Numbered from the stretch's first letter, positions 1-35,358 are shown. The stretch is 41,731 bases of DNA from Verrucomicrobiales bacterium (GCA_046075565.1 JBJTQJ010000059.1:1-41731); one strand, 5' to 3'. Program-made: numbers and translations. The notes: generated by a model from the letters alone, not told the origin.

Positions 1-60
1 TGGAGGGCATCCGATGTCCCATTGGACGACGACCGCATCCTGGTCCTCGAATACTCCTGA
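1..60 (+). CDS. 3' end of a gene entering the window, possibly a PP2C/SpoIIE-type phosphatase C-terminus
   Basis: Frame 1 reads WRASDVPLDDDRILVLEYS-stop (TGA 58-60). DD followed by a hydrophobic strand resembles the last PP2C/SpoIIE motif. Only 19 residues are visible. Confidence 0.3.
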   Translation, partial: WRASDVPLDDDRILVLEYS

Positions 61-107
61 TTCCTCCCGGCGCGCTCAAAAAAAATCAACCGCTGCCCAA
101 AAAATTC

Positions 108-135
108 TTGGCAAAGCGGTCTGAAAAGCTATGCT
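108..135 (+). promoter_or_regulatory. Putative sigma70 promoter with no obvious gene downstream
   Basis: TTGGCA (108-113), 16-nt spacer, TATGCT (130-135), preceded by A-tracts at 78-85 and 99-104. Confidence 0.35.
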
Positions 136-206
136 CTGACGGTAGGTGAAACGCCATGAAATTCCCCGATTAGGTGGAAATCCGTCATCAGGACGGACCT
201 CCACTA

Positions 207-233
207 TTTCAGTTTTCAGCTTTTCAGTTTTTC
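207..233. repeat. Short degenerate tandem repeat (TTTCAG x3)
   Basis: tttcagttttcagcttttcagtttttc, period 7-8 nt. Confidence 0.55.
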
Positions 234-252
234 CAGAACCCCCTTTCCCCCT

Positions 253-331
253 CAACCCCCTTTTCCCCGACCACCGGTCCGCCCCAAACGCTGTTGCAAT
301 AGCTGCCCGCCAAAAGCAAATTCCTGGCAGC
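253..331 (+). repeat. 79-bp direct repeat, copy 1
   Basis: Aligns without gaps to 9616-9694 with 4 mismatches (270, 288, 301, 326). Confidence 0.95.
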
Positions 332-569
332 CGCATTTATCCATTGCATTGGCAAACGTCGTGTGCAAAATGGGCAATGAACATCTTTGGTGTCACAACC
401 ACAACACCGCCCCAACGACGTATAATCGCTTCACAATTTTACCTCCCGTTGCACATCAACGCCTGAAACCGGCACTAAAATCACTAATCGGTCCGTCACC
501 CTCTTCATTCCTTTCCGCCAGCTTGCTTAGCGCATATTTGAAAACCACCAACACTTCCCCATAACAGCC

Positions 570-1193
570 ATGCAATCATCCCTTGTAAAAGCCACTGCCG
601 CTTCCCTATCCGTTTTGCTATTTTCCGGCTGCGCTGGAACCGCCGATGGTCGTCTGGCCCAAGGTCAAGGAACTGCCATCGGCGCCCTTCTCGGAGCCGG
701 TCTGGGTTATGCCATTGGCGGCGAGGAAGGTGCGGTTTTGGGAGCCGGCCTCGGAGGCGCGGCCGGGTTCGCTTATGGGACCCAAATCGCCCAGAAAAAG
801 GCGAAATACGCCAACACCGAACAATTCATGCAGGCCCAGATTGCCGAGGCCCGCAACCACAACCAAGCCATTGTTTCTTACAACCGCTCGCTCGAGCGAC
901 GCGTCGCCGCGCTGGAAAGCCGGGCCAAAGCCGCCAAAGCGAGCGGCAACAAGGCTGCCATCAGCTCGGTCCGCACCGAAGCCGCCCAACTGCAAAAGGA
1001 AGCCAATGGCAAGCAAAGCTCCTTTGGCAAACAAACCGGATTCTATGAAGCCGTCGCAAGTGACCCTGAAGCCAGCAGAACCAGCCAAGCCCAGTCGCTA
1101 GAGAGTCTGGCAAGCCAGATGCGCTCCAACGAGAAGAACATCGCCACATCGACCCGCCGTCTGGCCCAACTCGACAAACAACTTGCCCTCTGA
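570..1193 (+). CDS. Glycine-zipper lipoprotein with long coiled coil
   Basis: Lipobox LLFSGC, GxxxG repeats (GTAIGALLGAGLG...GAVLGAGLGGAAG), then an Ala/Gln/Lys-rich helical region. Confidence 0.8.
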   Translation: MQSSLVKATAASLSVLLFSGCAGTADGRLAQGQGTAIGALLGAGLGYAIGGEEGAVLGAGLGGAAGFAYGTQIAQKKAKYANTEQFMQAQIAEARNHNQAIVSYNRSLERRVAALESRAKAAKASGNKAAISSVRTEAAQLQKEANGKQSSFGKQTGFYEAVASDPEASRTSQAQSLESLASQMRSNEKNIATSTRRLAQLDKQLAL

Positions 1194-1200
1194 CACCCAC

Positions 1201-1425
1201 ATGAAAACAAGGCGCATCATCCCCGCAATGCTTTGTCTGGCCACCGCCAGCATCAGCCTTACATCCTGCGCCACGAACGGCGATCCCACCACCGGCGGGA
1301 TTTTCTGGAGCGAGTCCGCCAACCAGCAAAGGCTCAATAACATGCAGCAGGAGCTGGATTCCGTGAAGGCCGAAAACGCGCGGCAGATGAAGAAACAACG
1401 GTCTTTGGAAAACCAGCTTCCGTGA
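1201..1425 (+). CDS. Small lipoprotein (74 aa) with short coiled coil
   Basis: ATG at 1201, 7 nt after the upstream stop. Lipobox SLTSC, then GDPTTGGIFWSE and a helical tail. Stop overlaps the next start (GTGA). Confidence 0.75.
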   Translation: MKTRRIIPAMLCLATASISLTSCATNGDPTTGGIFWSESANQQRLNNMQQELDSVKAENARQMKKQRSLENQLP

Positions 1426-2750
1426 TGACCGGATGGCGTGAGCCCATGATCTACCCGCTTGAACAAAGCGGGTTCTCTCGCGTCAGGCGAAGCCTCCCAG
1501 GCCGGAGGAGCTTCCTCCGTATGGGAGCTGCCTATCTTGGGGCCGTGGGTTCCGCTTGGTTGGGTTCCGCCAGCTTCGGCACGGCACAGGATGCATCCCC
1601 TCCCGCGCCGGCCGACGATTGGAAACCGCTTCTCCAGCAAAGCTTCACCCTGCTGGAGGAGCACTGCCTTTACGAGATTCAGGCCGCCACCGTCCTGCGG
1701 AAAATGCTCGCTCTCATGCGGGCCAAGTTACCGCCCGACGATGCCAAGGCCTTGGCCGAGGCGGAGCGCAACACCATCGAGGAAGGTCTGTTGGGCATTT
1801 TTGATCAGACCATCAAACTGGCCGCGACCAAGGCGCCCCGGGGCCCCGTCACATCCCTCGTCATCATGCAGTCGGTCCTCCAGCAGTATGCCCGCTCACT
1901 GGATCGTTACAGTGACTACACACCGCCTGAAGACTTCGCAATGCTGCAATCCCTCGAAGCCGAACGCTATCTCGGTCTGGGATTCAACCTGGTGGAAGGC
2001 GAAGATGGTTTGTTCCGGTGTTTCCCATTCCCCGCCGAAGCCGCCGAGTTGGCCGGCCTGCTTCCCGGAGACCAACTTCTTGCCATTGATGGCAAAGCCA
2101 CCACCGGGATGTCCCGCTACCGTATCGCCGCCGCCGCCCGTGGCCAGGAAGGCACCATTGCCCGACTCGAAGTGCTGCGCGCGAACCAACGCCCCCGCGT
2201 GGTGGAGATCAAACGCACCGTGATTTCCACTTCGCCCATCCAGACAAGCGAAGGCGACGGGGGCATGACCATCCGCATCATCCGCTTCAACGAACAGACG
2301 ACCCGCGACCTCGGGGCCATCTTGCTCCAGTTGCCTGCCGGCAGCAATCTGGTCATCGATATGCAAGCTTGCCCGGGTGGCGAGTTGGAAGCCACCATCG
2401 CCTGCGCCTCCATGTTTGTGAGCCAGGGAGAAGAAGTCTGCCGCACCGTGACCCGGCTGAAAGAAGAGGTCCACCTTTCCAAAAACCCGTCCCCCTTCCG
2501 GGCGGGCAGCCTGGTGATCAAGCAAAACGAGGGCACGGCCAGCGCGGGCGAAATGTTCATCGCCGCCCTGACCGCCGATGCCGCCACCCGGGCGGTTTCC
2601 CGCGGACCCGTCACCTACGGCAAAGGGATGACCCAAACCGAATTCGGACTCAAGGCCGGAGGTGCCCTGAAGATCACCGACTCCCGTTTGTTAGGTCCCG
2701 GAGGCCGCTCCTGGGAACGCGAGGGACTCCAACCCACCGAACCCACCTGA
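1422..2750 (+). CDS. S41 family (CtpA/Prc-like) tail-specific protease with PDZ domain, Tat-exported
   Basis: Tat motif GRRSFLR; LDRYSDY; GLGF; PDZ-like AELAGLLPGDQLLAIDG; IDMQACPGG; catalytic GTASAGE and TYGKG. Exact start uncertain. Confidence 0.85.
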   Translation: MMTGWREPMIYPLEQSGFSRVRRSLPGRRSFLRMGAAYLGAVGSAWLGSASFGTAQDASPPAPADDWKPLLQQSFTLLEEHCLYEIQAATVLRKMLALMRAKLPPDDAKALAEAERNTIEEGLLGIFDQTIKLAATKAPRGPVTSLVIMQSVLQQYARSLDRYSDYTPPEDFAMLQSLEAERYLGLGFNLVEGEDGLFRCFPFPAEAAELAGLLPGDQLLAIDGKATTGMSRYRIAAAARGQEGTIARLEVLRANQRPRVVEIKRTVISTSPIQTSEGDGGMTIRIIRFNEQTTRDLGAILLQLPAGSNLVIDMQACPGGELEATIACASMFVSQGEEVCRTVTRLKEEVHLSKNPSPFRAGSLVIKQNEGTASAGEMFIAALTADAATRAVSRGPVTYGKGMTQTEFGLKAGGALKITDSRLLGPGGRSWEREGLQPTEPT

Positions 2751-2756
2751 ACGGCC

Positions 2757-5081
2757 TTGGATCCCGCCCCCCTCACCTACGGAGAATACGAAGTTTGCCA
2801 ACGTCTGGACGGCACTCCCATGGTGCTTGGCCAGGGCTCGTCCAGCATCACTTACAAGGCGGTTCCGCGTGGAACGGGTTTTGGAAGCAGCGCGGAAGGA
2901 CCCTCCGCCGTCAAGGTTTTCAAACCCGGGCGCGTTGCATCCGAGAGCAAGAGAAGCCAGTTCTTCCGGGAGGTGAGCGTGCTCGGTAGAATCCAGCACC
3001 CGAACGTGGTGGCCTATCTGAAACAGGGCGAGGAGAAGGGTGAAATCTATTATGTGATAGAATTCTGTGGTGGCGGCTCCCTCGAGGACTTCTGCCTGAA
3101 GACCGGCGGCCTCACGCCCGCTCAACTGTCCAGAGTGGCCACCCAGACACTCGATGCTCTGGCCGCCGTTCATGCCTCCGGCCATGTCCACGGCGAAATC
3201 ACTCCGTCAAAGCTCCTCCTCCACCAGGATTCCGGTGGCACCGATCTCACGGTCAAGCTTGCCGGCTTCGGTTCGGTCCGGCAAATCGACGGCACCCCGG
3301 ATGCCGGAGCCCCCCACACGGAAGGATCCTTGAAGGGCGAGTCATTCCTGGGAAGCCCGCTTTTTGCCAGTCCCGAGCAATTCATGGGACACCGGCTCGG
3401 CCACGGCAGCGACCTCTACTCCCTGGGCATCACCCTCTGGTTTCTGGCCCTCGGTTACAGTCCCTTCCAGGGTGTGGTTGGCGCGGTCAAATCGTGGCAC
3501 CTTTCCGCGTCTCCCCACGTCATCGCTCTGCCGGACAGTTTCCCCGCCGGATTCAGCGACATCTTGGCCTGGATGGTGGCCAAGAACCCGGCCGATCGTC
3601 CACCGGATCTGATGACGGTGAAGAATAATTTCACCGCCCTCCTGAACGAATCGCCCGCCAGTCGACCAGTGGCCGCATCCGAAGCTTCTCCCCCATCCGC
3701 CAATTTCTCGACCGCGAAAATCGAGAAAATAGCGAGAACATCTACCAGTTTTACCGGATTGCCACCCCCGCCGCAGTCGCGCACCCATGCTTCAATCACT
3801 TCTGAGCCTGCCCACAGCAGCCAAGCCACCGAAACGCGTCGGACAGCGGCCGCATCGGCACCCTCCGCCACATCCGCCAATTTACCGACCCAGAACGTCG
3901 AAAAAATCACTGGAACCGCCACTGGTGTCGCAAGGTTGTCGCCCTCGTCCCCGCCGTCGCGCACTACTGTTGGCCGCGATATCACGACCGGCGTGGTGGC
4001 CAGGGGCAAACCCCGGCTCGCGATCGCCATCGGTATCGTGCTGGTCACCGCCTTGGGCGGAGGAGCTTATCTGGCCTGGCAAAAATGGGGAAAAGCCAAG
4101 CCCCCCCAACAGCTCGCCAAAGGCAAAACGAACCCGCCGCAACAGTCTTCGGCCTCCGCAGCACGGACGAACACTTCAACCACACCAACCACCACCGCCG
4201 CGACCAATGCCGCGACGACTGGCACAACGCCACCTGCACCGCCGCCCACCATTCCGGTGCCGGCATCCTACGAACTACCGGAAGGCACTTCCCCGAAACA
4301 GCCGACCATCAAGGTCAATGGCAGAATCACCCGCACTTCCCCGTTCGGCAAGGGTTTCTCCATCGCCCTCGACGGGGCCACGGGATTCCCGGTCGAAATC
4401 GAGTTCTCCGCGCCCGGCCATGAGTCCCGCACTATCACCCTCAATGGCGGCGACAAACCGGCCTTCAACGAAATGGTCAAACTCAAGCGCACCGAAGGCA
4501 AAGTCATCCTTTCCTCACCACCCGAAGGCACCGACTTCACCATTGCCAATTTCAAATTTCTCCGGCCCCTCGAATCCGAACGGGATCATGTCCCGATTAT
4601 ATCCATCAGCCTGGATAAAGCCTTGGCGACCGGCTCGAATCAATCCCAATTCGTCATTCCCACCGGAGTCTATAAAGTTGTCTTGCGCAGCGATCACCCC
4701 GAACGCATCACGCCGAGGACATTCAACGAGTCGATTGAAGTCACCGCGAACAGCGAGACCCGTGCGATTTTCCCGCCCTCGGTCAGTGGAAAGTGGATCT
4801 TGAGGTCCTCGGAGGGAGCCTCACTGGAAATCAGGATCGACAAAGGACTCGGCGGAGGCAGCTTGGACACCCCCGAGGGAAGATCCGTGGCCACCATTTC
4901 CGCCATCCGCGTGCCGAATGACGAGTCGGTTGTTATCTCCCTCGATGCCCCCGATGGTGAGCGCGAACTCAGCCTCAAACTCCCCGGCGGGAAATTCACC
5001 GGTGCCACTTATACCATGAATCCTGCTCTCGCCCCTCTCCCGGCCGAAGGCGAAGCGATGAAACCCTGGTTCAAACCTTAA
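2757..5081 (+). CDS. Membrane-anchored Hanks-type Ser/Thr kinase-like protein, predicted pseudokinase
   Basis: AVK, HPNVV, YYVIEFC, GSPLFASPEQ and SDLYSLG are present, but HRD reads HGE and DFG reads GFG. Followed by a Ser/Thr/Pro linker, a TM helix (LAIAIGIVLVTALGGGAYLAW) and a beta-rich extracytoplasmic region. TTG start. Confidence 0.85.
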   Translation: MDPAPLTYGEYEVCQRLDGTPMVLGQGSSSITYKAVPRGTGFGSSAEGPSAVKVFKPGRVASESKRSQFFREVSVLGRIQHPNVVAYLKQGEEKGEIYYVIEFCGGGSLEDFCLKTGGLTPAQLSRVATQTLDALAAVHASGHVHGEITPSKLLLHQDSGGTDLTVKLAGFGSVRQIDGTPDAGAPHTEGSLKGESFLGSPLFASPEQFMGHRLGHGSDLYSLGITLWFLALGYSPFQGVVGAVKSWHLSASPHVIALPDSFPAGFSDILAWMVAKNPADRPPDLMTVKNNFTALLNESPASRPVAASEASPPSANFSTAKIEKIARTSTSFTGLPPPPQSRTHASITSEPAHSSQATETRRTAAASAPSATSANLPTQNVEKITGTATGVARLSPSSPPSRTTVGRDITTGVVARGKPRLAIAIGIVLVTALGGGAYLAWQKWGKAKPPQQLAKGKTNPPQQSSASAARTNTSTTPTTTAATNAATTGTTPPAPPPTIPVPASYELPEGTSPKQPTIKVNGRITRTSPFGKGFSIALDGATGFPVEIEFSAPGHESRTITLNGGDKPAFNEMVKLKRTEGKVILSSPPEGTDFTIANFKFLRPLESERDHVPIISISLDKALATGSNQSQFVIPTGVYKVVLRSDHPERITPRTFNESIEVTANSETRAIFPPSVSGKWILRSSEGASLEIRIDKGLGGGSLDTPEGRSVATISAIRVPNDESVVISLDAPDGERELSLKLPGGKFTGATYTMNPALAPLPAEGEAMKPWFKP

Positions 5082-5187
5082 AGTGCCAGAAGCGCAAGGT
5101 TTTCCCGGATAAAGCTGATCTGCTCCCGCTGAGTTTCGGATACCACATGAAACAACCACTCCGAAAATATCCAATCCATAGCTGTCT

Positions 5188-5772
5188 CTAGTCGCTGTCA
5201 TTGTGGGATGCTTGCGCCAAAAGACGCACAAGCTCGCATATATATCTGGCCTGCTCTTCATCTACAGCGATACCTTCGATTAATGATGGCTTAAATTTGA
5301 ATTCTGTGGGCTCACCACCGTCGTCGCATATCCTAATCGAAAGAGAGCGATTAAAATAATAGTAGACAGTGGCTAGACCAAAAAAGCCTAAAAGAATACT
5401 GACTTCAGGCACACCAAAGTCCAACTCCCCGCGAATCTTAAACGAAGCAAACAAAGTAAATATATACGCATTCAATAAACCGATTGCAGCGGGCAACAAA
5501 GGCTTGTAGTAGGCACAAGTGATGGATGAAACTTTGGCAAGGGGTACGAATTTTGAAATTCTTCCGGAAAGAGATGCAAAGTTTACCTCAATTCTATCTG
5601 CAGAAACTAGAAATGAACAGGTCGGATCAATTTTCAAGAAGTTCATGAGCCAGTCAATCGCACCTGCCTCACGTGCACGTATCACCACCAAGTTTCCGTC
5701 AGAATCCACGGGGCGGTTATTTGCCTTCCACTCTTTAACGACCAGACGTTTTGTTCGGTTTGCAAGTGCCAT
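5188..5772 (-). CDS. Hypothetical membrane protein (two TM helices)
   Basis: 194-aa ATG ORF in a lower-GC block; two hydrophobic segments flanked by beta-rich regions. Confidence 0.7.
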   Translation of the reverse strand: MALANRTKRLVVKEWKANNRPVDSDGNLVVIRAREAGAIDWLMNFLKIDPTCSFLVSADRIEVNFASLSGRISKFVPLAKVSSITCAYYKPLLPAAIGLLNAYIFTLFASFKIRGELDFGVPEVSILLGFFGLATVYYYFNRSLSIRICDDGGEPTEFKFKPSLIEGIAVDEEQARYICELVRLLAQASHNDSD

Positions 5773-5860
5773 AGAATTGTGATTTTAGAATTTTGTGGCA
5801 GTCTCAAGAAGAAATCTTCGGATCCCCCTATCTATCCAAAGCATCAAAACCTTAGGAAAT

Positions 5861-6247
5861 CTAGCCGGGCGGCCCCACATTTCCAGACATTTCTTTCGCT
5901 TTTTCTAACGCATTCTGCTTCTCAAATTTGATCGCCTCCCTGGCTTTTTTTGAGAACTTTGATGCGACCATTACTGCGACCGTTGCAGTGATAAAAAGTA
6001 GAGTCCCAATCAAAATGAGCACCCATTTGGTTATCGCTACAACGGTTTTGCTGGGCCCCTCTCCCATAGCTTCACCGCCAGGAGGTGGAGGCAGTCCGTT
6101 CGGGATGAGGTTCGAAACATTTTTGGGCAATCGATCCCGGAATTTCTCAGCTACAATTACTCCGCTTTTGCGACTGGAATCTACAAGAGTTGCGGGCAAT
6201 TTAGAAGTATCCGCATTGCCGGAGGATGACTGATCGTTATGGTGCAC
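5861..6247 (-). CDS. Hypothetical single-TM protein
   Basis: 128-aa ORF with GTG start 2 nt after the Sel1 gene stop; Pro-rich linker, one TM, basic tail. Confidence 0.55.
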   Translation of the reverse strand: MHHNDQSSSGNADTSKLPATLVDSSRKSGVIVAEKFRDRLPKNVSNLIPNGLPPPPGGEAMGEGPSKTVVAITKWVLILIGTLLFITATVAVMVASKFSKKAREAIKFEKQNALEKAKEMSGNVGPPG

Positions 6248-6249
6248 GG

Positions 6250-8682
6250 TTAATCAAATTTTGATTTTCTCGCGTCGGCGTTTGGTATGGCTTTTATCAC
6301 CATGTGATCAGCGGGCACAATCTTGCAGAATGCAGCACCCTCCTCATCTGTTAAGATAGGATCGGTGTAATATGTCAACTCATATCCCAATGGGCTCCTA
6401 TGCTGGAACACCTGTTGAGCGCCAATGTCACAAACATTCCCAAACAGACTGGCTTTAAGGCTCAGAACCTGAACGTTCAGCCCCGGGATGTCATATGCTT
6501 TTACAAAAGTTTGAAGGAATTCTTCCCTCGGTGAATCTTTCGTGCCAAAAAGTTTATCCCGAACAGGCAGGGATATCTCAAACGCGTAAACTTTACCGCT
6601 TGCATCAATGAGTGCGAATGGCGTGTCTCCCGCCGTGCGTTGTATGGTGTATTCGTTGCCATTGTTGAAAGTGTAGAATGGTCCTTGGGGTTCTACATTT
6701 GGATTAATCCCTACCATAGCCAGAGCAAAAGCTGCCGCCTGATCCTTGTTTGATGGTGCTGGCAAATCACGTGGAGTGGTAGAAACTTGTTGAAGTCCCA
6801 TGTAATGATTCAGAAGCCCTTGAGCATCCGATGCGGGCATGCCAAGGTAAAAGCCCTTAAAAACAAGGGTTTTCTCCTTGAAAGCATCTCCTTTAGTTTT
6901 TATTACGTTCACGTCGAAAGCCAACATACTCCCTGCTACGACGTCACCAGCGGATTTGCTCGACCGATTCACAGTGTCGGCATCGTCCCTTGGTGCCCCG
7001 CTTCCGTTCCCGTGCATAGTGCCCAAATAAGCCAGAGCATCTGCATCGCCTTGGTCGGCGGCTTTTCGAACCAATTTCACAGCCTCGGCATCATCTTTTG
7101 CCACACCTCTCCCGGTCGCGTACATTAGGCCCAAATTGAGCTGAGCAACAGCATTACCTTGGTCGGCGGCTTTCCGAAACCACTTCACTGCTTCGCCATC
7201 ATCTTTTTGAACCCCGCTGCCATTCGCGTACATAACGCCCAAATCTGATTGAGCGAAAGCATTACCTTGGTCGGCGGCTTTTCGAAACCACTTCACGGCC
7301 TCCGCATCGTCCTTTGGAACCCCGCTGCCAGTCGCGTACATTTGGCCCAAATTGACCTGAGCCTCGCTATCGCCTTGGTCGGCGGCTTTTCGAAACCACT
7401 TCACGGCCTCCGCATCGTCCTTTGGAACTCCACTGCCAGTCGCGTACATTTTGCCCAGACATGCCTGAGCTGCCGCGTTACCCTGGTCTGCAGCTTTCCG
7501 ATACCACTTAGATGCCTCGGCATCGTCTTTTGGGATCCCTATACCTTCCTCGTTCATGAGCCCCAAACCCAACTGAGCGGCAATATTTCCCTGGTCGGCT
7601 GCTTTCCGAAACCATTTAAAGGCCTCGGCCGGATCTTTTTGGACCCCTCTGCCAGTTTGGTAATGAAAGCCCAAATTCGACTGCGCCGCAGCAACACCCT
7701 GATCCGCGGCTTTCTGATACCACTTTACAGCTTCGGCATCGTCTTTTGGGACCCCTCTTCCAGTCGCGTAAGAAATGCCTAAGTTGACCTGAGCCTCGGC
7801 ATTACCTTGGTCGGCGGCTTTCTGAAACCACCTCACCGCTTCGGCATCGTCTTTTGCTACCCCTCTCCCTGTCGCGTAAGAAACCCCCAAATTTACCTGA
7901 GCCTTGGCGTAACCTTGGTCGGCGGCGTTCAGATTCCACTTAAAGGCCTCGGCATCGTCTTTCGGAACCCAGCTTCCGTTCCCGTGCATAGTGCCCAAAT
8001 ATGCCTGAGCATCCGCATCGCCTTTTTCAGCGGCTTTCCGATACCACTTCACTGCCTCGGCATCGTCTTTTGCGACCCCTCTGCCAGTCGCGTGCATTAG
8101 GCCAAGATTCACCTGAGCAACAGCAAGACCTTGGTCGGCGGCTTTCAGATACCACTTCACCGCCTCGGTGTCGTCTTTTGCCACCCCTATGCCATTCGCG
8201 TACATGAATCCCAACTTCGACTGCGCAACTGGCTCACCTTGGTCGGCGGCTTTCCGATACCATTTCACCGCCTCGGCATCGTCTTTTGCAACCCCTCTGC
8301 CTACCTCGTACATTTGGCCCAAATTTCCCTGAGCAACAGCAAGACCTTTCTCCGCCGCTTTCCGATACCACTTCACTGCCTCGGCATCGTCTTTTCCAAC
8401 CCCTCTGCCGTTTGCGTACATGAGGCCCAAATTCGATTGGGCTTTTGAATTACCCTTGTCGGCGGCTTTTTGTAGCCATTTCACCGCCTCGGCATCATCC
8501 ACCGGCACGCCACTACCAGTCAAGTAGATTTTGCCCAGATTAGCCTGAGCGTCGGCATCACCTTGGATAGCGGCAGCTTTTATATCATTAAGATTTGCCT
8601 GCTGGGCAAACGTGACCTGGAAACAGCAGATTCCAGCCATTGAGACTGCAATCGCTTTTCGGAATTTAGGGGAAGCATTCAT
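6250..8682 (-). CDS. Secreted Sel1-repeat protein with a non-repeat C-terminal domain
   Basis: Signal peptide; 14 full plus 1 degenerate 36-aa repeats (AQxxLGxxYxxGxGVxKDDAEAVKWxxKAADQG); ~230-aa unique C-terminus. Confidence 0.93.
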   Translation of the reverse strand: MNASPKFRKAIAVSMAGICCFQVTFAQQANLNDIKAAAIQGDADAQANLGKIYLTGSGVPVDDAEAVKWLQKAADKGNSKAQSNLGLMYANGRGVGKDDAEAVKWYRKAAEKGLAVAQGNLGQMYEVGRGVAKDDAEAVKWYRKAADQGEPVAQSKLGFMYANGIGVAKDDTEAVKWYLKAADQGLAVAQVNLGLMHATGRGVAKDDAEAVKWYRKAAEKGDADAQAYLGTMHGNGSWVPKDDAEAFKWNLNAADQGYAKAQVNLGVSYATGRGVAKDDAEAVRWFQKAADQGNAEAQVNLGISYATGRGVPKDDAEAVKWYQKAADQGVAAAQSNLGFHYQTGRGVQKDPAEAFKWFRKAADQGNIAAQLGLGLMNEEGIGIPKDDAEASKWYRKAADQGNAAAQACLGKMYATGSGVPKDDAEAVKWFRKAADQGDSEAQVNLGQMYATGSGVPKDDAEAVKWFRKAADQGNAFAQSDLGVMYANGSGVQKDDGEAVKWFRKAADQGNAVAQLNLGLMYATGRGVAKDDAEAVKLVRKAADQGDADALAYLGTMHGNGSGAPRDDADTVNRSSKSAGDVVAGSMLAFDVNVIKTKGDAFKEKTLVFKGFYLGMPASDAQGLLNHYMGLQQVSTTPRDLPAPSNKDQAAAFALAMVGINPNVEPQGPFYTFNNGNEYTIQRTAGDTPFALIDASGKVYAFEISLPVRDKLFGTKDSPREEFLQTFVKAYDIPGLNVQVLSLKASLFGNVCDIGAQQVFQHRSPLGYELTYYTDPILTDEEGAAFCKIVPADHMVIKAIPNADARKSKFD
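6940..8559 (-). repeat. Intragenic 108-bp tandem repeat array (15 Sel1 units)
   Basis: Motifs such as ccttggtcggcggcttt and ggcatcgtcttt recur every 108 nt, in frame. Confidence 0.92.
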
Positions 8683-9025
8683 GGAACATTGCTTTGTTTG
8701 AAATGCTCACAGGTGGACACTTCCCTGTCAATGGGAGATTTGTAGAAAGCTCTTGATAAAAAGATCCGCCTAAAGACATCTACTGATATTGACTGCTATC
8801 GGAACGAACATTGCCACATTTACGCGACCAAGGCTCAAGATACGCTCTCTGAATCTGTGGCTTATAAAAGCGACCAATTTCATAGGCTTCGGCTTTCATG
8901 TGCGGTATGGCGACACGTAAATCTGCTACTTGAAGCCATGGGGTCGTCGCACCCCCAATTCTCGCGCTTTTCCGACCCCGCCCATCCGCTGCTTCAGGAA
9001 CCTCCCTCCAGGCTCCAATTACCCC

Positions 9026-9214
9026 TCACCTCCGCCTGAGCTTCTTCACCATCGCGATGGCTGAAAGGATGCCCACGGCCAGACCGACGAGCAACGAGCC
9101 GACACGCAGGTGCCATTCCACCTGTTCCTGCAAGGATGTGATGACACCCAGGACCGGCGAGGCGATGCCGACGATGGCTTTCATTATGTAGTCGATGTCG
9201 AAGGGTGTGCGCAT
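9026..9214 (-). CDS. Small two-TM protein, holin-like
   Basis: 62 aa, two hydrophobic segments separated by QEQVEW, basic tail KKLRRR. Confidence 0.55.
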   Translation of the reverse strand: MRTPFDIDYIMKAIVGIASPVLGVITSLQEQVEWHLRVGSLLVGLAVGILSAIAMVKKLRRR

Positions 9215-9229
9215 GGGGCATGGTTCCTG

Positions 9230-9615
9230 TCAATCCTGGGCGGCACCGGCCTCGGTCCGCAGATACTTTTCCGCCCAGGCCGTGTAGCGTTTGGTCAGTT
9301 CGTTGTAGCTGGCGGCGTCCCCTCTGGCCTTGGCGGCGTCGATGTCCTTGAGGAGTTGGTTCATGTATTGACCGGGCGGCTTATTCCAGAGGAACAAGCG
9401 ACTGATCGTAAAGAGGTCGGGCGCGGAAGCAGTGCCCAAAGCGGCGATGATTGGCGGCTTGATCGCGTTGGCCAGCACCACCGAATCCCCCGGCTCTTTC
9501 GGGGCGGCAATTTCCGGGGGTCTGGTGGCTTCCGCGAGTTGAGCAGGATCTCCGGACACCGGCACATCCGCGATGACTGGCCGTGGTGCCGAATTCGCCA
9601 TCTGAACTGGGTCAC
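9230..9615 (-). pseudogene. Hypothetical protein, probably 5'-truncated at the 79-bp repeat (or intact from ATG 9601)
   Basis: High-GC3 frame starting with a Pro/Ala-rich linker directly at the repeat edge; the ORF extension to 9772 just reads through the repeat. Confidence 0.45.
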
Positions 9616-9694
9616 CAACCCCCTTTTCCCCGCCCACCGGTCCGCCCCAAGCGCTGTTGCAATGGCTGCCCGCCAAAAGCAAATTCCTAGCAGC
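9616..9694 (+). repeat. 79-bp direct repeat, copy 2
   Basis: 75/79 identical to 253-331; offset 9363 nt. Confidence 0.95.
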
Positions 9695-9844
9695 AACCTC
9701 GCCTGCTACGAATGTCTGGAGGGCAACTTGGATGAAGCCAAGCGCCTCATCGCAGACCACCTCATCATCCATCCGGATTTAAAGGAACGAGCCTTCGCTG
9801 AGCCAGACTTCACAGCCATCCGAGATTTTATCGAAGCTCTTTAG
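9695..9844 (+). pseudogene. C-terminal remnant of a TPR protein (TPR end-of-group-like)
   Basis: NLACYECLEGNLDEAKRLIA...AFAEPDFTAIRDFIEAL-stop matches the YNLAC...D.DF terminal TPR pattern. It has no start of its own and begins right after the repeat. Confidence 0.7.
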
Positions 9845-9859
9845 AACTGATCAAAGCCC

Positions 9860-10516
9860 ATGCCTACCCAGTCCCGCACCGTCCGAGTTTTTTTAAGTTC
9901 CACCTTCCGGGATTTTGCCGAGGAGCGGGATTTGCTGGTGAGAAAGATTTTCCCGGAACTTCGTCGCAGATGCCGTGAGCGCCAGGTCGAGTTGGTGGAT
10001 GTCGATTTGCGTTGGGGCATCACCGAGGAGGAGGCTCAGCAGGGAAAGGTGCTGCCAATCTGCCTTGCTGAAATTGACCGCTCGCGGCCCTTTTTCATGG
10101 GCTTTATCGGCGACCGCTATGGCTGGGTGCCGGAGAAGAACCAATACGACCTCTCCCTGCTGCTGGAGCAGCCCTGGCTCGAGGCACACCGCGGCGACAA
10201 GAGCGTCACCGAGCTGGAGATCCTCCACGGCGTCCTCGACAATCCCGCGATGGAGAAGCGCGCCTTCTTCTACTTCCGCGATCCGGCCTGGTCCGAGGCG
10301 CAGGGTGGTGCCTACCTGTGCGAGGGAACGGACGAGAGGGCGAAGCTCGAAGAGCTCAAGGACCGCATCCGCCGGAGCGGCTTCCCCGTCGTCGAAAACT
10401 ACGCCAGCCCCGAAGAACTCGCCGAGCGGGTCCGGGAGGATCTCTGGCAGCTCATCGACGAGGCCTATCCGGAGAGCGAGGTGCCCGATGCCCTTTCAGG
10501 GAACTCATGTTCGTAA
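9860..10516 (+). pseudogene. DUF4062-domain protein, probably the 3'-truncated N-terminus of a DUF4062-NTPase-TPR protein
   Basis: RVFLSSTFRDF..ER, VDLRWG, CLAEIDR, GDRYG, SVTELEI. Coding style collapses after ...EVPDAL (~10495) and no P-loop follows. Confidence 0.75.
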
Positions 10517-10989
10517 AATGTGAAGCTGGTGTTCATTACATAGGCGGATCGGCCCGGCACCCTGAACGCGAAGCGTGGGTGCGACCGATTCCAGCATGAC
10601 TCCAACCGGCTATGCCGACCGGAGCCCTTTGGCGTTTGGCCGGAAACCGACCCTCAGACGAAGAAAAAATCATCCGTCTCAGACCTGCGCATTACGCGCT
10701 TTTGTTTCGAAAATCGGGCGTTACCCGAAGTGGTGCTTCAGAATGGGGAATTCTGGTATGAGTTGTAACCTCGGAGTTTCACCGAACAGACGCCACGAAA
10801 TCATTGTTCCGCAGCCAATCCACTGGCATGGCACCAGTGGAGCTTTTCGTGGGCCGTAGGCCCTATGTGTAAATCACCGGATGGCGAATTCACACATCAG
10901 TATGCACCCGGACAATTCAGAGGCAAGCACCTTCTAGGCAATTTCAACAGGCGGGACTCTCCGGTTATGCGTACGCCTCGCACAATCTG

Positions 10990-11052
10990 GTAACGGTTTA
11001 GTAACGGTTTTTGATGCCTATTCGTGCATTTCCATGCCTTTCGGTGCCTTTT
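10990..11052. repeat. Helically phased short direct repeats, att-arm / recombination-factor-site-like
   Basis: GTAACGGTTT at 10990 and 11001; RTGCMTWT at 11014, 11024, 11034 and 11044; about 60-125 nt beyond the tRNA-Ser 3' end. Confidence 0.7.
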
Positions 11053-11113
11053 ACACCGTCGTTTGAAAATGCGCCTTATGACGCTGAAAGCCTTATTTCA
11101 CAAGGAAAAGTAG

Positions 11114-11201
<88 letters not shown>

Positions 11202-11220
11202 TGGTAGGTTGCGGGAAAAA

Positions 11221-11706
11221 TCAGGTGACGGGCTCCAACTCGGGATTGGCGTCCTCGGTTTTGGAGCCGAGGAAGGAGATAATGAGCAGGAGCACGTTGA
11301 CGGTGAGGATGGCGGCCGGACTGAATGGTCCACTGATATCGATGACGTCCTTGAGCCGGGTATCGACACCGGCCGGGATGCCCTGGGGAAGCGGGTTGGT
11401 GCCTTTGGTCACTTCCCACATGAGTTCAGGGAAAATGACAATAAGGAAAGCAAAGGTGGAGGCGAAGAAGGCAAAGGCCCCGATCATCCGCCAGAGGATA
11501 TTCGGGCTGATGGAGCTGCTGCCGCCGGAGACAAGCGCGACGAGTTGGAAGGCGAGCACGGCCCCACCGGCGAGGATGGAAACGGGCACGACTTTTTGCC
11601 ACAAGCCGGGCTCGAGGCTGAGGCCGGAGCACACCATGGTGATGACGACCAGCAGGAGGGCCAGGAGGGCAAGGACGCGGCTGAAGGAAGAGGCGGGGAA
11701 GGTCAT
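11221..11706 (-). CDS. Hypothetical membrane protein (about 4 TM)
   Basis: Start reassigned to MTFPASS (ATG 11706) to avoid overlapping the amidase; four hydrophobic helices. Confidence 0.75.
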   Translation of the reverse strand: MTFPASSFSRVLALLALLLVVITMVCSGLSLEPGLWQKVVPVSILAGGAVLAFQLVALVSGGSSSISPNILWRMIGAFAFFASTFAFLIVIFPELMWEVTKGTNPLPQGIPAGVDTRLKDVIDISGPFSPAAILTVNVLLLIISFLGSKTEDANPELEPVT

Positions 11707-11767
11707 AGGATGAGTCGGGAAATGTGGCGGATTTTCCTGATTCCGCAACCGGCGATTCGGCGCCAGT

Positions 11768-12394
11768 TCATTTCGAATACGCCGCCCGGAGGGCCGTAAC
11801 CGGGAAATTCTTACCCGGGCATTCGCGCGCGGACCGCTCGACTTCGGCGTGCAGGCGCACCGGGTGCGGACCGATTTTGGCGGTGAGGTAGTCGAGCAAT
11901 TCATCAAGGGCTTCCAATTGGGCCCGGCTGGGCTCCTTACGGTTGAATTCCCCGACCAGGGCGATGGCAATGGCATCCGCCTCCTGCCGGGGGTCCTGCA
12001 AGCTCTGGGAGGCGACTCCTTCCCTCCATCGGCGCGTCACGAAAATGTCACCATCCCCGAAGCCCCGGCCGTTTCCGATGACAAAATGGTAGGCCAGCCC
12101 GTCGGCAAGGCCCCGGACGCGGCGGTGGTTGTCCTCCAGCGATGAGGGGCTGGCGTTGGCACTGCCGGTCGAGTGGATGATGGTCAGCACCGGCTTTCCG
12201 CGTTTGCCGAGGCCGGAGTCGACATCGGCGCGGGTTTCGGCACCGAGTTTGACCCAGGCTTGCCGGGGTTCGTTGAAACTGAAGCCTTCGCTGGACGGTT
12301 CGGGCCCAGCCTCCGGTTTCCCGCATCCCGCCAAGATCGTCCCGAAGAGGGCGATGATCGGAAAAAGGAGTTGGCACGATGACGAGACTTGCAT
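11768..12394 (-). CDS. N-acetylmuramoyl-L-alanine amidase (Amidase_2/PGRP-like), lipoprotein
   Basis: Lipobox LAGC; IIHST, LAYHFVIGNG, IAIALVGEFN, LH..V, ECPG. Start reassigned to ATG 12394. Confidence 0.85.
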   Translation of the reverse strand: MQVSSSCQLLFPIIALFGTILAGCGKPEAGPEPSSEGFSFNEPRQAWVKLGAETRADVDSGLGKRGKPVLTIIHSTGSANASPSSLEDNHRRVRGLADGLAYHFVIGNGRGFGDGDIFVTRRWREGVASQSLQDPRQEADAIAIALVGEFNRKEPSRAQLEALDELLDYLTAKIGPHPVRLHAEVERSARECPGKNFPVTALRAAYSK

Positions 12395-21124: not shown

Positions 21125-21198
21125 TGGAGCGGGCAGAGGGAATCGAACCCTCATGGCCAGCTTGGAAGGCTGGCGCTTTACCACTAAGCTATGCCCGC
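21125..21198 (-). tRNA. tRNA-Gly(TCC)
   Basis: Reverse complement GCGGGCATAGCTTAGTGGTAAAGCG CCAGC CTTCCAA GCTGG...GGTTCGATTCC...GCTCCA; 74 nt. Confidence 0.97.
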
Positions 21199-22010: not shown

Positions 22011-24218
22011 ATGAGGGGCGTCTTGTGGCTCGGGAAGAATCCGCTCTTTCCCCTCGCGATTTCCCTCGCTTCGGGCTTGGCTTTCGGACCGCTGGCTCTC
22101 TGGGCCTGCGTCACATGCTCCGTCCTTTGGTTTTGGAAAAAGAAAACCCTTACCCCGGAGTTGCCGTGGTGGTTTCCCCTGCTCTTGTCCATTGGAGCTT
22201 CCGCTGGCCTGGCCCGGGTCAAAATGACGGAGGGCCGGCAAGAGAACCCCGCCTTTTCGCCCGGACATACTCTGGTATGCGAGGGGCGCGTCGGCGCGGT
22301 CTTCACACCTCCTCAGGAGACGGAACTCCGAGCCTGGTTTGAACTCGAATTGGCCGGAGAACACGCTGGTTCCCGGCTTCGCGTGCGTCTGCCGGAAAAT
22401 CAACTCCCTCCCCTGCCCGGTTCGTTGGTCAGGATCGGCGGCACCTTCCGCCCCGGCGACAAACCCACCAATCCTTGGGAATGGGACGAGGTGGAGCAGT
22501 TGGCCAATCGGGGCATCCCCGGCAATCTCTGGGTTGCCGACGACAAGCCGGTGGAGATTCTATCGCCGCCACCATGGTGGCATCTCATGGCCTGGGGAGA
22601 ACGCGGTCGCCGTGTCATCACCACGGCGTTTATTTCGCTCGTGCCGGAAACGGATCGACGGGCGGTCGTTCTGGGAATCATGCTCGGCGCGCGCGAAGGC
22701 ATGAGCGAAGAGGCCCTGCTTGCCTTCCGCAGAACGGGATCTCTTCATCTTTTCGCGGTGAGCGGCATGCATGTCGGCATGATGGCGGGAATTTTCTGGG
22801 GACTTCTGCTCCCCCTTCCATTGCCCCGGCGGAAACTGGCCTGGTTTCTTTTACCCCTGCTGCTCGGCTACACCGTGCTGACGGGCGCGGAGCCGCCCGC
22901 TGTTCGCGCGCTGGTCATGATCGGCATTCTTGTCTTCGGACTGGTTCTGGACCGCACTCCCCGGATCTTGAATTCGCTCTCGGCGGCTTTCATCGTCATG
23001 CTGCTCCATGAACCGAACCAGCGGCACGATCTCGGATTTCAACTCACCTTCTGTGTGGTGCTGGCCATTGTCCTGATCGGATTGCCGCTGGCGAAAAAGT
23101 TTTCCGCCTTCGGCCAACCGGACCCGTTTCTCCCGGCGGATCTGGTTAGCCCATGGCAACGCCGCCGCTGGGGCTGGGTGCGTTTCGGGACCGCTTCGTT
23201 ATGCTTTGGCATCGCCGCCAATCTCGGATCCCTTCCGCTCTCCATCCATCACTTCAATCTGGCCACGCCGTCGGGTGTTTTTCTCGGCCTCGCTCTGGTC
23301 CCGCTCTCCTGGCTCATCCTGTGTACCGCCACGGGAATTCTCTTCTTCCTTCCGCTCGGCTTGGGTTGGTTCGTCCACTTCTGCGGCTGGATCGCGGGCG
23401 GGCTGGCGGCCGCCTGCCTCGGGTTGTGCGCTTGGGCGGCCTCCCTGCCAGGAGCATGGCATCTACCGAGACACGATCCTCCCACGCCGGTGGAAATGTT
23501 GGTCTTCGATCTCGACCGTGGCGGGGCCTCCGCTTTGATCCGCAACCGGCAAACCGCATGGCTGCTCGACACGGGAAATCCGGGGCACGCCCGCCGGGTC
23601 GTCTGCAATGCCGCACTCCATCTCGGCACCGCGCCCCTCGATCTGGTCGTCCATTCCCACGAGGATGTCCAGCACCGGGGCGGCCAGAAAGAGATCATTC
23701 GTTTGTTAGGAAATCCGATCCAGACATGGACCAAACCCCGCGCCAACGACACGACCGCCGCCGCGTCGATGGAGCTACAGACATTGTTTCCCCCGCCGGG
23801 CTGGGCGGCCGATCGGGCCGACGATCGTTCCGCAATTTTCAAACTTTCGGTCGAGGGATGGACGGTGTTCTGGCTGGGCGACGCGGGTTTCGGTTCGCAG
23901 AAGTGGATGCTGGAACATACAAATCCGGCTGCCTTGCGCTCCGACGTGCTTTGTGTCGGTTGGCACGGCACGGACATCGGGTTGGTCAGGGACTTCGTGG
24001 ACGCCGTCGATCCGAAACTGGTGGTCTGGCATCGCTGGCGCCCGGAAACCCTGAACCCGCCCGGCGAAAACCTCAGGGCTTACCTGCGCGAGCGGGGCAT
24101 CCCTCTTCTCGAGCAGAGGAACACCGGTGCCCTCACCTTCGGCTTCACTGAGGAAACCTTGACCGTCACTCCATTTCTCGCGCCAAACACACCAACCGTG
24201 CTCCACCGGCAACCGTGA
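22011..24218 (+). CDS. comEC: ComEC/Rec2 competence protein
   Basis: NPWEWD, HLFAVSGMHVG, RALVM, GFQLTF, multiple TMs, C-terminal beta-lactamase-like domain (LLDTG, GDAG, TGALTF). Confidence 0.88.
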   Translation: MRGVLWLGKNPLFPLAISLASGLAFGPLALWACVTCSVLWFWKKKTLTPELPWWFPLLLSIGASAGLARVKMTEGRQENPAFSPGHTLVCEGRVGAVFTPPQETELRAWFELELAGEHAGSRLRVRLPENQLPPLPGSLVRIGGTFRPGDKPTNPWEWDEVEQLANRGIPGNLWVADDKPVEILSPPPWWHLMAWGERGRRVITTAFISLVPETDRRAVVLGIMLGAREGMSEEALLAFRRTGSLHLFAVSGMHVGMMAGIFWGLLLPLPLPRRKLAWFLLPLLLGYTVLTGAEPPAVRALVMIGILVFGLVLDRTPRILNSLSAAFIVMLLHEPNQRHDLGFQLTFCVVLAIVLIGLPLAKKFSAFGQPDPFLPADLVSPWQRRRWGWVRFGTASLCFGIAANLGSLPLSIHHFNLATPSGVFLGLALVPLSWLILCTATGILFFLPLGLGWFVHFCGWIAGGLAAACLGLCAWAASLPGAWHLPRHDPPTPVEMLVFDLDRGGASALIRNRQTAWLLDTGNPGHARRVVCNAALHLGTAPLDLVVHSHEDVQHRGGQKEIIRLLGNPIQTWTKPRANDTTAAASMELQTLFPPPGWAADRADDRSAIFKLSVEGWTVFWLGDAGFGSQKWMLEHTNPAALRSDVLCVGWHGTDIGLVRDFVDAVDPKLVVWHRWRPETLNPPGENLRAYLRERGIPLLEQRNTGALTFGFTEETLTVTPFLAPNTPTVLHRQP

Positions 24219-35096: not shown

Positions 35097-35358
35097 GAAA
35101 ATGGGGAAATGATTGGCGGGCGGACGGGTTGCCGCCCTCCTTATTCATCAAATGTCATGCCGGTCTCACGGGTTTACCCTCCGGAAAGGATTTCGGACTT
35201 TCGGCCTCTGAAAAGTGTGTATTTACAAAATATTACGCCGTGACCGCTGCCGACGAGCGGAATTTTCCCGGATTTTGAGGCCCCCTGCGGTTCCCCTTGC
35301 CGGGTTCACCCGGCAAATCGCTGCCCAAAAGAACGTTGGGAAAGGCTCCGGCTTCCCA

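Follow-up and report, generated by a model that had tools for sequence, protein, structure and literature searches.

The stretch of DNA analyzed here, referred to as the window, is a 41,731-nt contig (C59) of a Verrucomicrobiales genome (GCA_046075565.1, JBJTQJ010000059.1) from a freshwater bacterium, here called G000, which comprises 129 contigs and 3.9 Mb. The window contains two copies of a 79-bp non-coding element, copy 1 at 253-331 and copy 2 at 9616-9694 in window coordinates, and we find that they belong to a dispersed family of sharp-ended modules, some of which follow a conserved predicted promoter, which often open or close a block of genes, cluster in one orientation and in three cases end at a gene breakpoint. 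With modest confidence, we favor the reading that this is a propagating family of promoter-leader and terminal modules that is mobile or recombining and whose copies serve as portable homology. The family has two main forms, one being the 3' end of a conserved unit of about 240 bp with predicted promoter, leader and extension, and the other a solo module of 79-108 bp. Copy 1, heading lipoprotein, S41 and kinase genes, represents the full unit, and copy 2 the solo form, whose usual site is the gap behind or before a gene. Copies would have propagated as DNA by copy-and-paste or recombination and would mark places where gene blocks are added, lost or joined. Local arrays would grow behind a head copy with a promoter, all in one orientation, and a gene that is hit would remain cut exactly at the module end.

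The two window copies lie in the same orientation with a spacing of 9363 bp and align without gaps at 75/79 identity. When positions 1-700 and 9401-10000 were compared with the whole genome by BLASTN, these 79 bases were the sole sequence common to both neighborhoods, and a chance match is excluded (E 7e-30). This agrees with the initial annotation of the window, which had described an ungapped direct repeat with unrelated flanks. The annotation had also implied that there are only two copies and proposed a count, which places the family far beyond that number: BLAST finds 16 matches to the 79-mer in G000, and a profile built from ten copies (nhmmer) finds 13 strong copies at E <= 1.3e-10 on 8 contigs, with weaker ones besides. 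Ten of the copies are mutually 93-97% alike. All 13 strong copies have identical first and last bases, starting with CAAC and ending in ...CCTAGCAGC, with differing flanks, i.e., the boundaries are fixed across the aligned copies and not ragged. The element has a short form of 79 nt and a long form of 108 nt, the latter found in 7 copies and produced by a 28-nt insert at one internal position; 7/8 genome matches to this insert fall inside family copies.

These relationships bear on the model put forward in the initial annotation, in which a single 9.3-kb unit, ending in the two window copies, excises as a 9363-bp circle. The copies are indeed direct, recombination between any two direct copies is possible in principle, and the interval is mixed-GC accessory DNA next to a tRNA-Ser gene. 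However, the two copies are not mutual nearest relatives, as copy 2 has 95% identity with copy 1 but 97% with the copy at C69:49 and 96% with that at C100:143, and copy 1, unlike copy 2, is part of a larger conserved unit. With at least 13 copies in the genome and the closest relatives on other contigs, the pair does not form the private bracket of a 9.3-kb element. We consider this version very improbable, and it is the least supported of those weighed here.

Beyond G000, the family was searched for with a sequence-only model (R1) in 151 genomes from 8 families of the order. It is present in 26/151 genomes, with a patchy distribution over 5/8 families (f1 2/3, f2 3/36, f4 4/36, f5 15/36, f6 1/36), and the three families represented by one genome each gave no match. 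Positive genomes mostly have 1-7 matches, while G000 has 20 and G031 has 28. A sample of 151 genomes from the phylum gave matches in G000 and G031 only and none outside the order, and plasmid and phage collections gave no family match. As far as sampled, the family is confined to one order of Verrucomicrobia. Our composition and identity statistics are based on 44 near-full copies, for which mean identity is 0.82 within G000, 0.83 within G031 and 0.72 between genomes, and certain variants are up to 98.7% identical across genomes of different families. A literature search turned up no account of a repeat of this type in these bacteria, the supplementary lists of putative mobile promoters (PMPs) of the 2012 Nucleic Acids Research paper being outside the search.

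The element has a skewed composition and little structure. Its plus strand is C-rich and G-poor in 44/44 copies (mean C 41.5% and G 17.6%, against 29.8/29.7% in the genome), and 0.37% of random genomic 79-mers are equally skewed. No significant fold of the element was found (DNA z -0.3 to -0.7), and the long form alone reaches z -2.1, through two small hairpins in the 28-nt insert. The only pairing within the 79-mer is an internal stem of 5-6 bp, GCTGC(C)/(G)GCAGC, which is the inverted pair pointed out in the initial annotation. RNAalifold gave no consensus structure for the 79-mer, and the small stem that is often possible around a conserved TTTCA differs in register between subfamilies and was not counted as covariation. 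ARAGORN found no tRNA at either window copy, and Rfam 15 gave four matches at E <= 1 in positions 1-12000, none of them at 1-331 or 9616-9694, in line with the earlier statement that the repeat is not tRNA-derived. The C-rich, G-poor and unstructured make-up suggests a terminator-like (Rho-loading) role, which we infer, as we do mobility and promoter activity.

The same make-up would suit a family that does not move, in which selection maintains the element solely as a cis-regulatory signal in RNA or DNA. It could be a C-rich site of Rho loading (rut-type) that attenuates within leaders and terminates behind genes, or else the operator of one regulon. Apart from the composition and the lack of a stable fold, this would explain why several solo copies begin 2-16 nt after a stop codon, why the promoter distance is fixed, and why blocks are conserved over five families with near-identical variants between them. 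However, 93-97% identity over the whole length between unrelated loci of one genome is unexpected for independently selected sites, and so are the 28-nt insert common to 7 copies and the genome-specific subfamilies. Additionally, about one third of copies have opposite-strand neighbors, some lying between two antisense genes, copies abut truncated genes, and the family was not found in 125/151 genomes of the order, one complete genome of the same family included. We regard an immobile signal of this kind as rather unlikely.

Copy 1, on the plus strand, forms the 3' module of a full unit with promoter and leader. Window positions 1-331 match C100, C69, C73 and C78, and the closest match, C59:123-332 with C100:13-222, has 96.7% identity over 210 nt ahead of unrelated genes. 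The region in common with other full units (C69:1662-1323, 79% over 343 nt, and C73) starts with 1-60, the end of an ORF-like (open reading frame) stretch. A conserved promoter block follows at 88-135, with an A-tract, a -35 TTGGCA (108-113), a 16-nt spacer and a -10 TATGCT (130-135). The leader at 136-236 has a hairpin (173-204, RNA fold z -1.86) and then T-rich heptad repeats (205-236), and may function as a terminator or attenuator. It is separated from the element by a C-rich 16-nt extension (237-252), which is found in promoter-bearing copies only. TTGGCA-16-TATGCT was the only sigma70-like site called in 1-700 by the promoter scan. The full units thus carry a conserved predicted promoter outside the 79-mer, 148 nt upstream of copy 1. 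The initial annotation had instead pointed to a promoter-like sequence within the element; TTGCAA-17-CAAATT is present at 295-323, but the scan does not call it. Copy 2, also on the plus strand, is a solo element without promoter block and without C-rich extension.

The link between promoter and element recurs in other genomes. Eleven copies from 8 genomes (G000 C59, C69 and C73, G003, G093, G064, G129, three in G031, and G002) have the promoter block 148-160 nt upstream of the element, and in G106 the distance is 123 nt. The 16-nt extension before CAAC was flagged in the promoter-block copies save those of G129 and G106, and in an alignment of 12 sequences the -35 hexamer and TAnnnT of the -10 are among the best-kept of the first 60 columns. 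Within the loci compared, 17/60 copies have a promoter match at most 300 nt upstream, and 43/60 are solo or partial. Three units have the start codon of a signal-peptide protein 3-11 nt beyond the element. Several full units have a hairpin and U-run downstream of the promoter, although with uneven folds (z -4.05 to +0.78). A common register of the leader hairpin did not hold across alignment rows when checked by hand, and RNAalifold on the 276-column full-unit alignment gave only 8 implausible long-range pairs. A leader peptide or other coding reading of the unit was ruled out by 1-nt indels between copies; copy 1 also has a stop after 5 codons, and the frame is not kept through the 79-mer. 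A third form was observed at two loci of G031 (L080:5275-5370 and L085:1902-1992), where about 28 nt separate the promoter block from element position 27-29 and both the leader and the 5' half of the element are absent.

Copies of the family are clustered and strictly co-oriented. In G000, 5 same-contig pairs within 10 kb were found among the 13 copies against 0.34 expected (P 5e-5). Consecutive R1 matches on the same contig within 10 kb are on one strand in 23/23 pairs from 7 genomes, with 10 pairs in G031, 6 in G000, 3 in G003 and one each in G002, G061, G089 and G143, and arrays antisense to both neighboring genes exist. In 8/10 promoter-holding clusters the promoter is directly before the 5'-most copy, a count that is open to bias since the loci were taken with limited flanks; in one of the remaining two it lies 1.45 kb before the first copy, and in the other before the second copy. 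Some copies bracket single genes, namely one of 300 aa on C69, a PEP-CTERM protein gene on C65 and one of 980 aa in G002. Copies are found beside core genes (uvrA, nuoD, ileS) as well as accessory genes. GC skew in element orientation, used as a test of replication-strand bias, had no consistent sign, being negative for 6 of the 8 contigs and positive for the other 2.

Such arrays could also be explained by a cassette platform with a dedicated recombination site. The head copy would correspond to the integron Pc/attI, solo copies would be left by inserted blocks, and new blocks would enter next to the head copy by means of a site-specific recombinase or through the action of RecA on excised circles. 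Consistent with this, neighboring copies are always co-oriented, even in arrays antisense to local genes, the promoter is usually on the first and never on the last copy of its cluster, and copies bracket single genes. Furthermore, C69 has a second tRNA-Ser-like gene followed directly by a tyrosine integrase (C69:2198-3832 and 3638-3728; Phage_integrase, partial match), then small ORFs common with C108 and then the repeat head unit, 0.8 kb downstream, whose left part matches window 1-60. PF00589 has 4 matches in the genome, and this is the one near copies. However, the element is neither palindromic nor folded, unlike attC, and the cargo varies between 1 and 9.3 kb and includes genes on both strands. 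No cargo block recurs in the genome, no circle or empty-site joint was seen, and the promoter copies counted as first may be so because of the limited flanks. The domain scan of 33 ORFs also found no integrase in the window; more generally, it found no transposase or recombinase, in agreement with the initial annotation. We regard a dedicated platform of this kind as rather unlikely. The same low probability is given to an integron-like but structurally unrelated gene-accretion system, in which a promoter-leader head and a 79-bp non-palindromic C-rich site would gain a co-oriented copy with each added block, through an unknown recombinase or RecA on excised circles, and the site would double as a Rho-type stop.

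Three gene breakpoints coincide with module ends, at window 9694/9695, C94:8654 and G041 L066:1574. In the window, 9695-9844 on the plus strand encodes the C-terminal 49 codons and stop of a DUF4062-NACHT-TPR (STAND) gene whose first ~1000 codons are missing. Positions 9695-9841 align with residues 1001-1048 of P0014, a 1064-aa DUF4062-NACHT-TPR protein, at 73% identity. Compared with 50 longer TPR proteins, the 49-residue tail has 57-82% identity, with the whole query covered in 41/50 and 94-98% of it in the rest. Where the homologue reads YNLACYE, the window reads S|NLACYE, and the join is therefore at 9694/9695, as was claimed in the initial annotation for a headless TPR tail fused to copy 2. 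A second STAND-type gene follows at 9860-10516 on the plus strand, with its N-terminal 213 residues; 9860-10513 aligns with P0014 residues 1-213 at 70%, and homology ends near 10498, where there is no repeat copy. As these are the only P0014-type pieces in the genome, the alignments show that copy 2 is directly joined to the tail of one STAND gene and that the head of a second gene is cut near 10498. About 600 nt of non-coding DNA lie between this second break and a tRNA-Ser gene.

On C94, the head of a PSCyt1 gene (domain residues 40-99) runs into the 5' end of the copy at 8654, and its paralogues align only to about residue 121. In G041, which belongs to another genus, an opposite-strand N-terminal UPF0176 fragment keeps homology up to L066:1574, and the element ends at 1573-1574; 10/13 other UPF0176 matches in the genus of G041 are in open frames of 590-684 aa. 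Pfam was run on 13 ORF fragments abutting copy ends, and 2 were informative on truncation. Truncated genes, which the initial annotation had proposed to look for in the flanks, are thus found at module ends in three cases. The gene reading away from copy 2 on its left (9601<-9233), which was thought to lack its N-terminus, was not shown to be truncated, as it has its own ATG and 123/123 residues align with a C108 paralogue at 70.7%. The cut genes could have arisen in two steps, with a copy inserting into a gene and then recombining with another direct copy. We take the gene fragments beside copies to be real rearrangement scars and not annotation noise. The wider proposal of a recombination site, element end or portable promoter is supported in part, by a discrete sharp-ended module with three breakpoints at its ends and a conserved predicted promoter in its full copies, whereas the private 9.3-kb bracket and the internal promoter do not hold, and the excision was not seen in the contigs of four metagenome runs.

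The breakpoint at copy 2 could be questioned if the contig were chimeric across this copy, with flanks that are not neighbors in the cell. The metagenome comparison consists of assembled contigs from four runs, in which rare molecular forms are invisible; the source-like run holds 92% of the sampled words of the stretch. Its depth is 102 and 90 over two repeat-bearing bins and about 14-15 beside them (~6-fold), and other metagenome contigs diverge exactly at 9616 (n=2) and 9694 (n=7). In G000 itself, 9/13 strong copies are within 1.5 kb of a contig end, a zone that makes up 9.7% of the genome. The repeat family, or what travels with it, is thus what breaks the assembly, and it accounts for the poor genome assembly at copy sites. 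A multi-copy repeat of this kind, with no contig bridging 9616-9694 among those listed, would permit a mis-join. On the other hand, 79 bp is shorter than usual reads, and a contig piece covering 9665-9940 has a depth of 15.5, which resembles the left side. We consider a chimeric contig unlikely, even more so than the immobile signal or the cassette platform, and since the tail must abut a copy even if the contig were mis-joined, the 9694/9695 breakpoint stands.

Several results weigh against a mobile or recombining family. The ends CAACCCCC... and ...CCTAGCAGC are not complementary, so that terminal inverted repeats are absent, as the initial annotation had stated, and a side-by-side reading of the flanks, for 14 copies of G000 and 15 from other genomes, revealed no target-site duplication, although in some copies the last 4-8 bases are repeated in tandem. 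No insertion polymorphism, i.e., a filled against an empty site, was found. The URO-D-like gene beside a C122 copy, used in a synteny test, had no match in 3 same-family genomes, and neither did the S41 gene of the window, which therefore offered no empty site for comparison. The joints 331->9695 and 9694->253, which a deletion or the proposed 9363-bp circle would leave, are absent from the contigs of the four metagenome runs, which are blind to rare forms. The only contig joints seen were 131->207, which is the variant of another copy, and 7264->7373. No listed contig bridges copy 2, the cargo blocks between copies have no duplicate elsewhere in the genome, and among the nhmmer matches there is no longer autonomous element bounded by the same ends. 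The cross-family conservation of variants could reflect selection on function instead of transfer. Finally, by crude gene calls, solo copies have 26 co-oriented, 13 opposed and 4 missing upstream neighbors, and 24 co-oriented, 12 opposed and 7 missing downstream neighbors. This bias is only 2:1, and a uniform promoter or terminator role is therefore unsupported.

A mobilizing enzyme was looked for as well, as proposed in the initial annotation, and no transposase or recombinase tracks the family convincingly, which adds to the points above. Y1-like genes are found in 20/26 repeat-positive and 64/125 repeat-negative genomes, and none of the 11 IS200-like Y1 matches in G000 is flanked by copies. 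RAYT as the mobilizer was rejected on this weak co-occurrence and because paralogous Y1-like genes have only the gene and about 50 nt in common. An IS110 origin, considered for an ORF on C65 and a transposase at L020 of G031, and a retro-element were also rejected, since PF01548 and RVT_1, respectively, were not found in the genome. A multi-copy gene of about 384 aa with an IS200-like (Y1_Tnp) N-terminus was observed in G000 on C39, C50, C113, C6 and C99 (also C25 and C108). Its copies have 82-86% protein identity, and homologues are found in 84/151 genomes of the order, often in many copies. Another side observation concerns the 3' end of the element, where the last 4-20 bases are often tandemly repeated just outside (G000 C94:1213 and C3:963, G031 L023 and L027, G129 L060). 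The repeats are of the types CAGC CAGC and CAGT CAGT CAGT, or a 20-nt tail present about 2.5 times, and may represent slippage or a trace of how copies arise.

Compared with known systems, we regard the family as a variant of PMPs. These are highly similar non-coding upstream regions before unrelated genes, common to several families, with no Rfam match and no known way of moving, and their operational definition asks for 80% identity over a 50-nt stretch within -150 to -50 (Matus-Garcia, Nijveen and van Passel 2012; commentary PMC3575422). Within one genome, C59 and C100 exceed 80% identity over more than 50 nt with different genes downstream (96.7% over 210 nt), and C69 has 79% over 343 nt, also with different downstream genes. 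The family differs from PMPs in that it also includes solo modules lacking a promoter, its ends are fixed, its arrays are co-oriented and gene breakpoints fall at its ends. Promoter-bearing miniature inverted-repeat transposable elements (MITEs), such as Correia and ERIC with their outward promoters (PMC3575422), are likewise small, non-coding, multi-copy and promoter-associated. Unlike them, the family has no terminal inverted repeats, no target-site duplication and no related insertion sequence that we could find.

Repetitive extragenic palindromic (REP) elements, with BIME and REPIN, are described as short intergenic elements mobilized by RAYT (PMC3733652; PMC3116915; PMC3337134), and a REP is a palindromic stem-loop of 20-40 bp tagged by GTAG or CGTC (PMC3733652). 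Our family resembles them in consisting of short intergenic repeats that number in the tens, frequently form clusters and frequently lie behind genes. The genome also has IS200-like Y1 genes, and the 28-nt insert of the long form makes a small hairpin next to a minus-strand GTAG. However, the 79-mer is non-palindromic and unfolded, and its clusters are head-to-tail in 23/23 cases and never inverted dimers, with no Y1 gene between copies.

The integron attC is an imperfect palindrome that folds into a bulged hairpin. Like integron arrays and attC clusters without integrase, the family has a promoter-bearing head followed by gene blocks that each end in a co-oriented repeat, and its repeats are near-identical inside one genome while differing from one genome to the next. 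Unlike integrons, it has no attC-type palindrome or fold and no IntI nearby, and its blocks can contain several genes and genes on both strands. Rut sites have neither sequence conservation nor sharp ends. With Rho-dependent terminators the element has in common a length of about 80 nt, a C-rich, G-poor and unstructured make-up and a frequent position just behind a stop codon, whereas its conserved sequence and sharp ends set it apart. Strict head-to-tail arrays with the promoter copy usually first are not seen in REP, MITE or simple regulatory sites. The family thereby offers a concrete example of promoter reuse with base-precise ends, in which a conserved promoter-leader unit stands before unrelated and often secreted-protein genes in several families of a little-studied phylum. 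Should the array patterns reflect block addition, accessory gene arrays would here be assembled in a new way.

The interval of 9.3 kb that separates the window copies is accessory, mosaic DNA. Copy 1 is followed by co-oriented genes at 570-5081 on the plus strand, which by Pfam scan and ORF calls are a Gly-zipper lipoprotein (570-1193), a small ORF (1183-1425), an S41 peptidase-PDZ protein (1422-2750) and a kinase-fold protein (2757-5081; Pkinase, E 6e-33). The latter appears to read HGE in place of HRD and GFG in place of DFG, which fits the pseudokinase of the initial annotation. A low-GC block on the minus strand at 5188-8682 contains two ORFs with no Pfam match and low codon-usage scores (5188-5772 and 5861-6247) and an 810-aa Sel1-repeat protein (6250-8682). 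GC is 0.57-0.64 in the lipoprotein-S41-kinase block and 0.44-0.55 in the Sel1 block, with 0.44-0.49 at 5001-7000 and 8501-9000 against 0.596 in the genome. At 9026-9601, also on the minus strand, a small membrane ORF (9026-9214) and the 123-aa gene (9233-9601), which starts 14 nt from copy 2, have a paralogous pair on C108. A second contig population with depth 24 and many substitutions was seen at 9049-9425, and represents either the C108 paralogue (89% over 483 nt) or a second strain.

Within the Sel1 gene, 6913-8616 consists of 14 tandem 108-bp units with 65-81% similarity to each other. In one metagenome contig exactly one unit is absent, giving the joint 7264->7373 mentioned above, so the Sel1 repeat number varies in the population. 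The only tRNAs found are tRNA-Ser(TGA) at 11114-11201 on the minus strand, with its 3' end facing the accessory block, and tRNA-Gly at 21125-21198 (ARAGORN). A tRNA-derived att repeat was considered and rejected, as no direct repeat of at least 13 nt derived from tRNA-Ser occurs elsewhere in the window. A weak, 79% module-A-like match lies beside a hairpin at 35316-35344. Positions 22011-24218 encode a ComEC-type competence protein (Competence and DUF4131), which would be relevant if block exchange uses incoming DNA.

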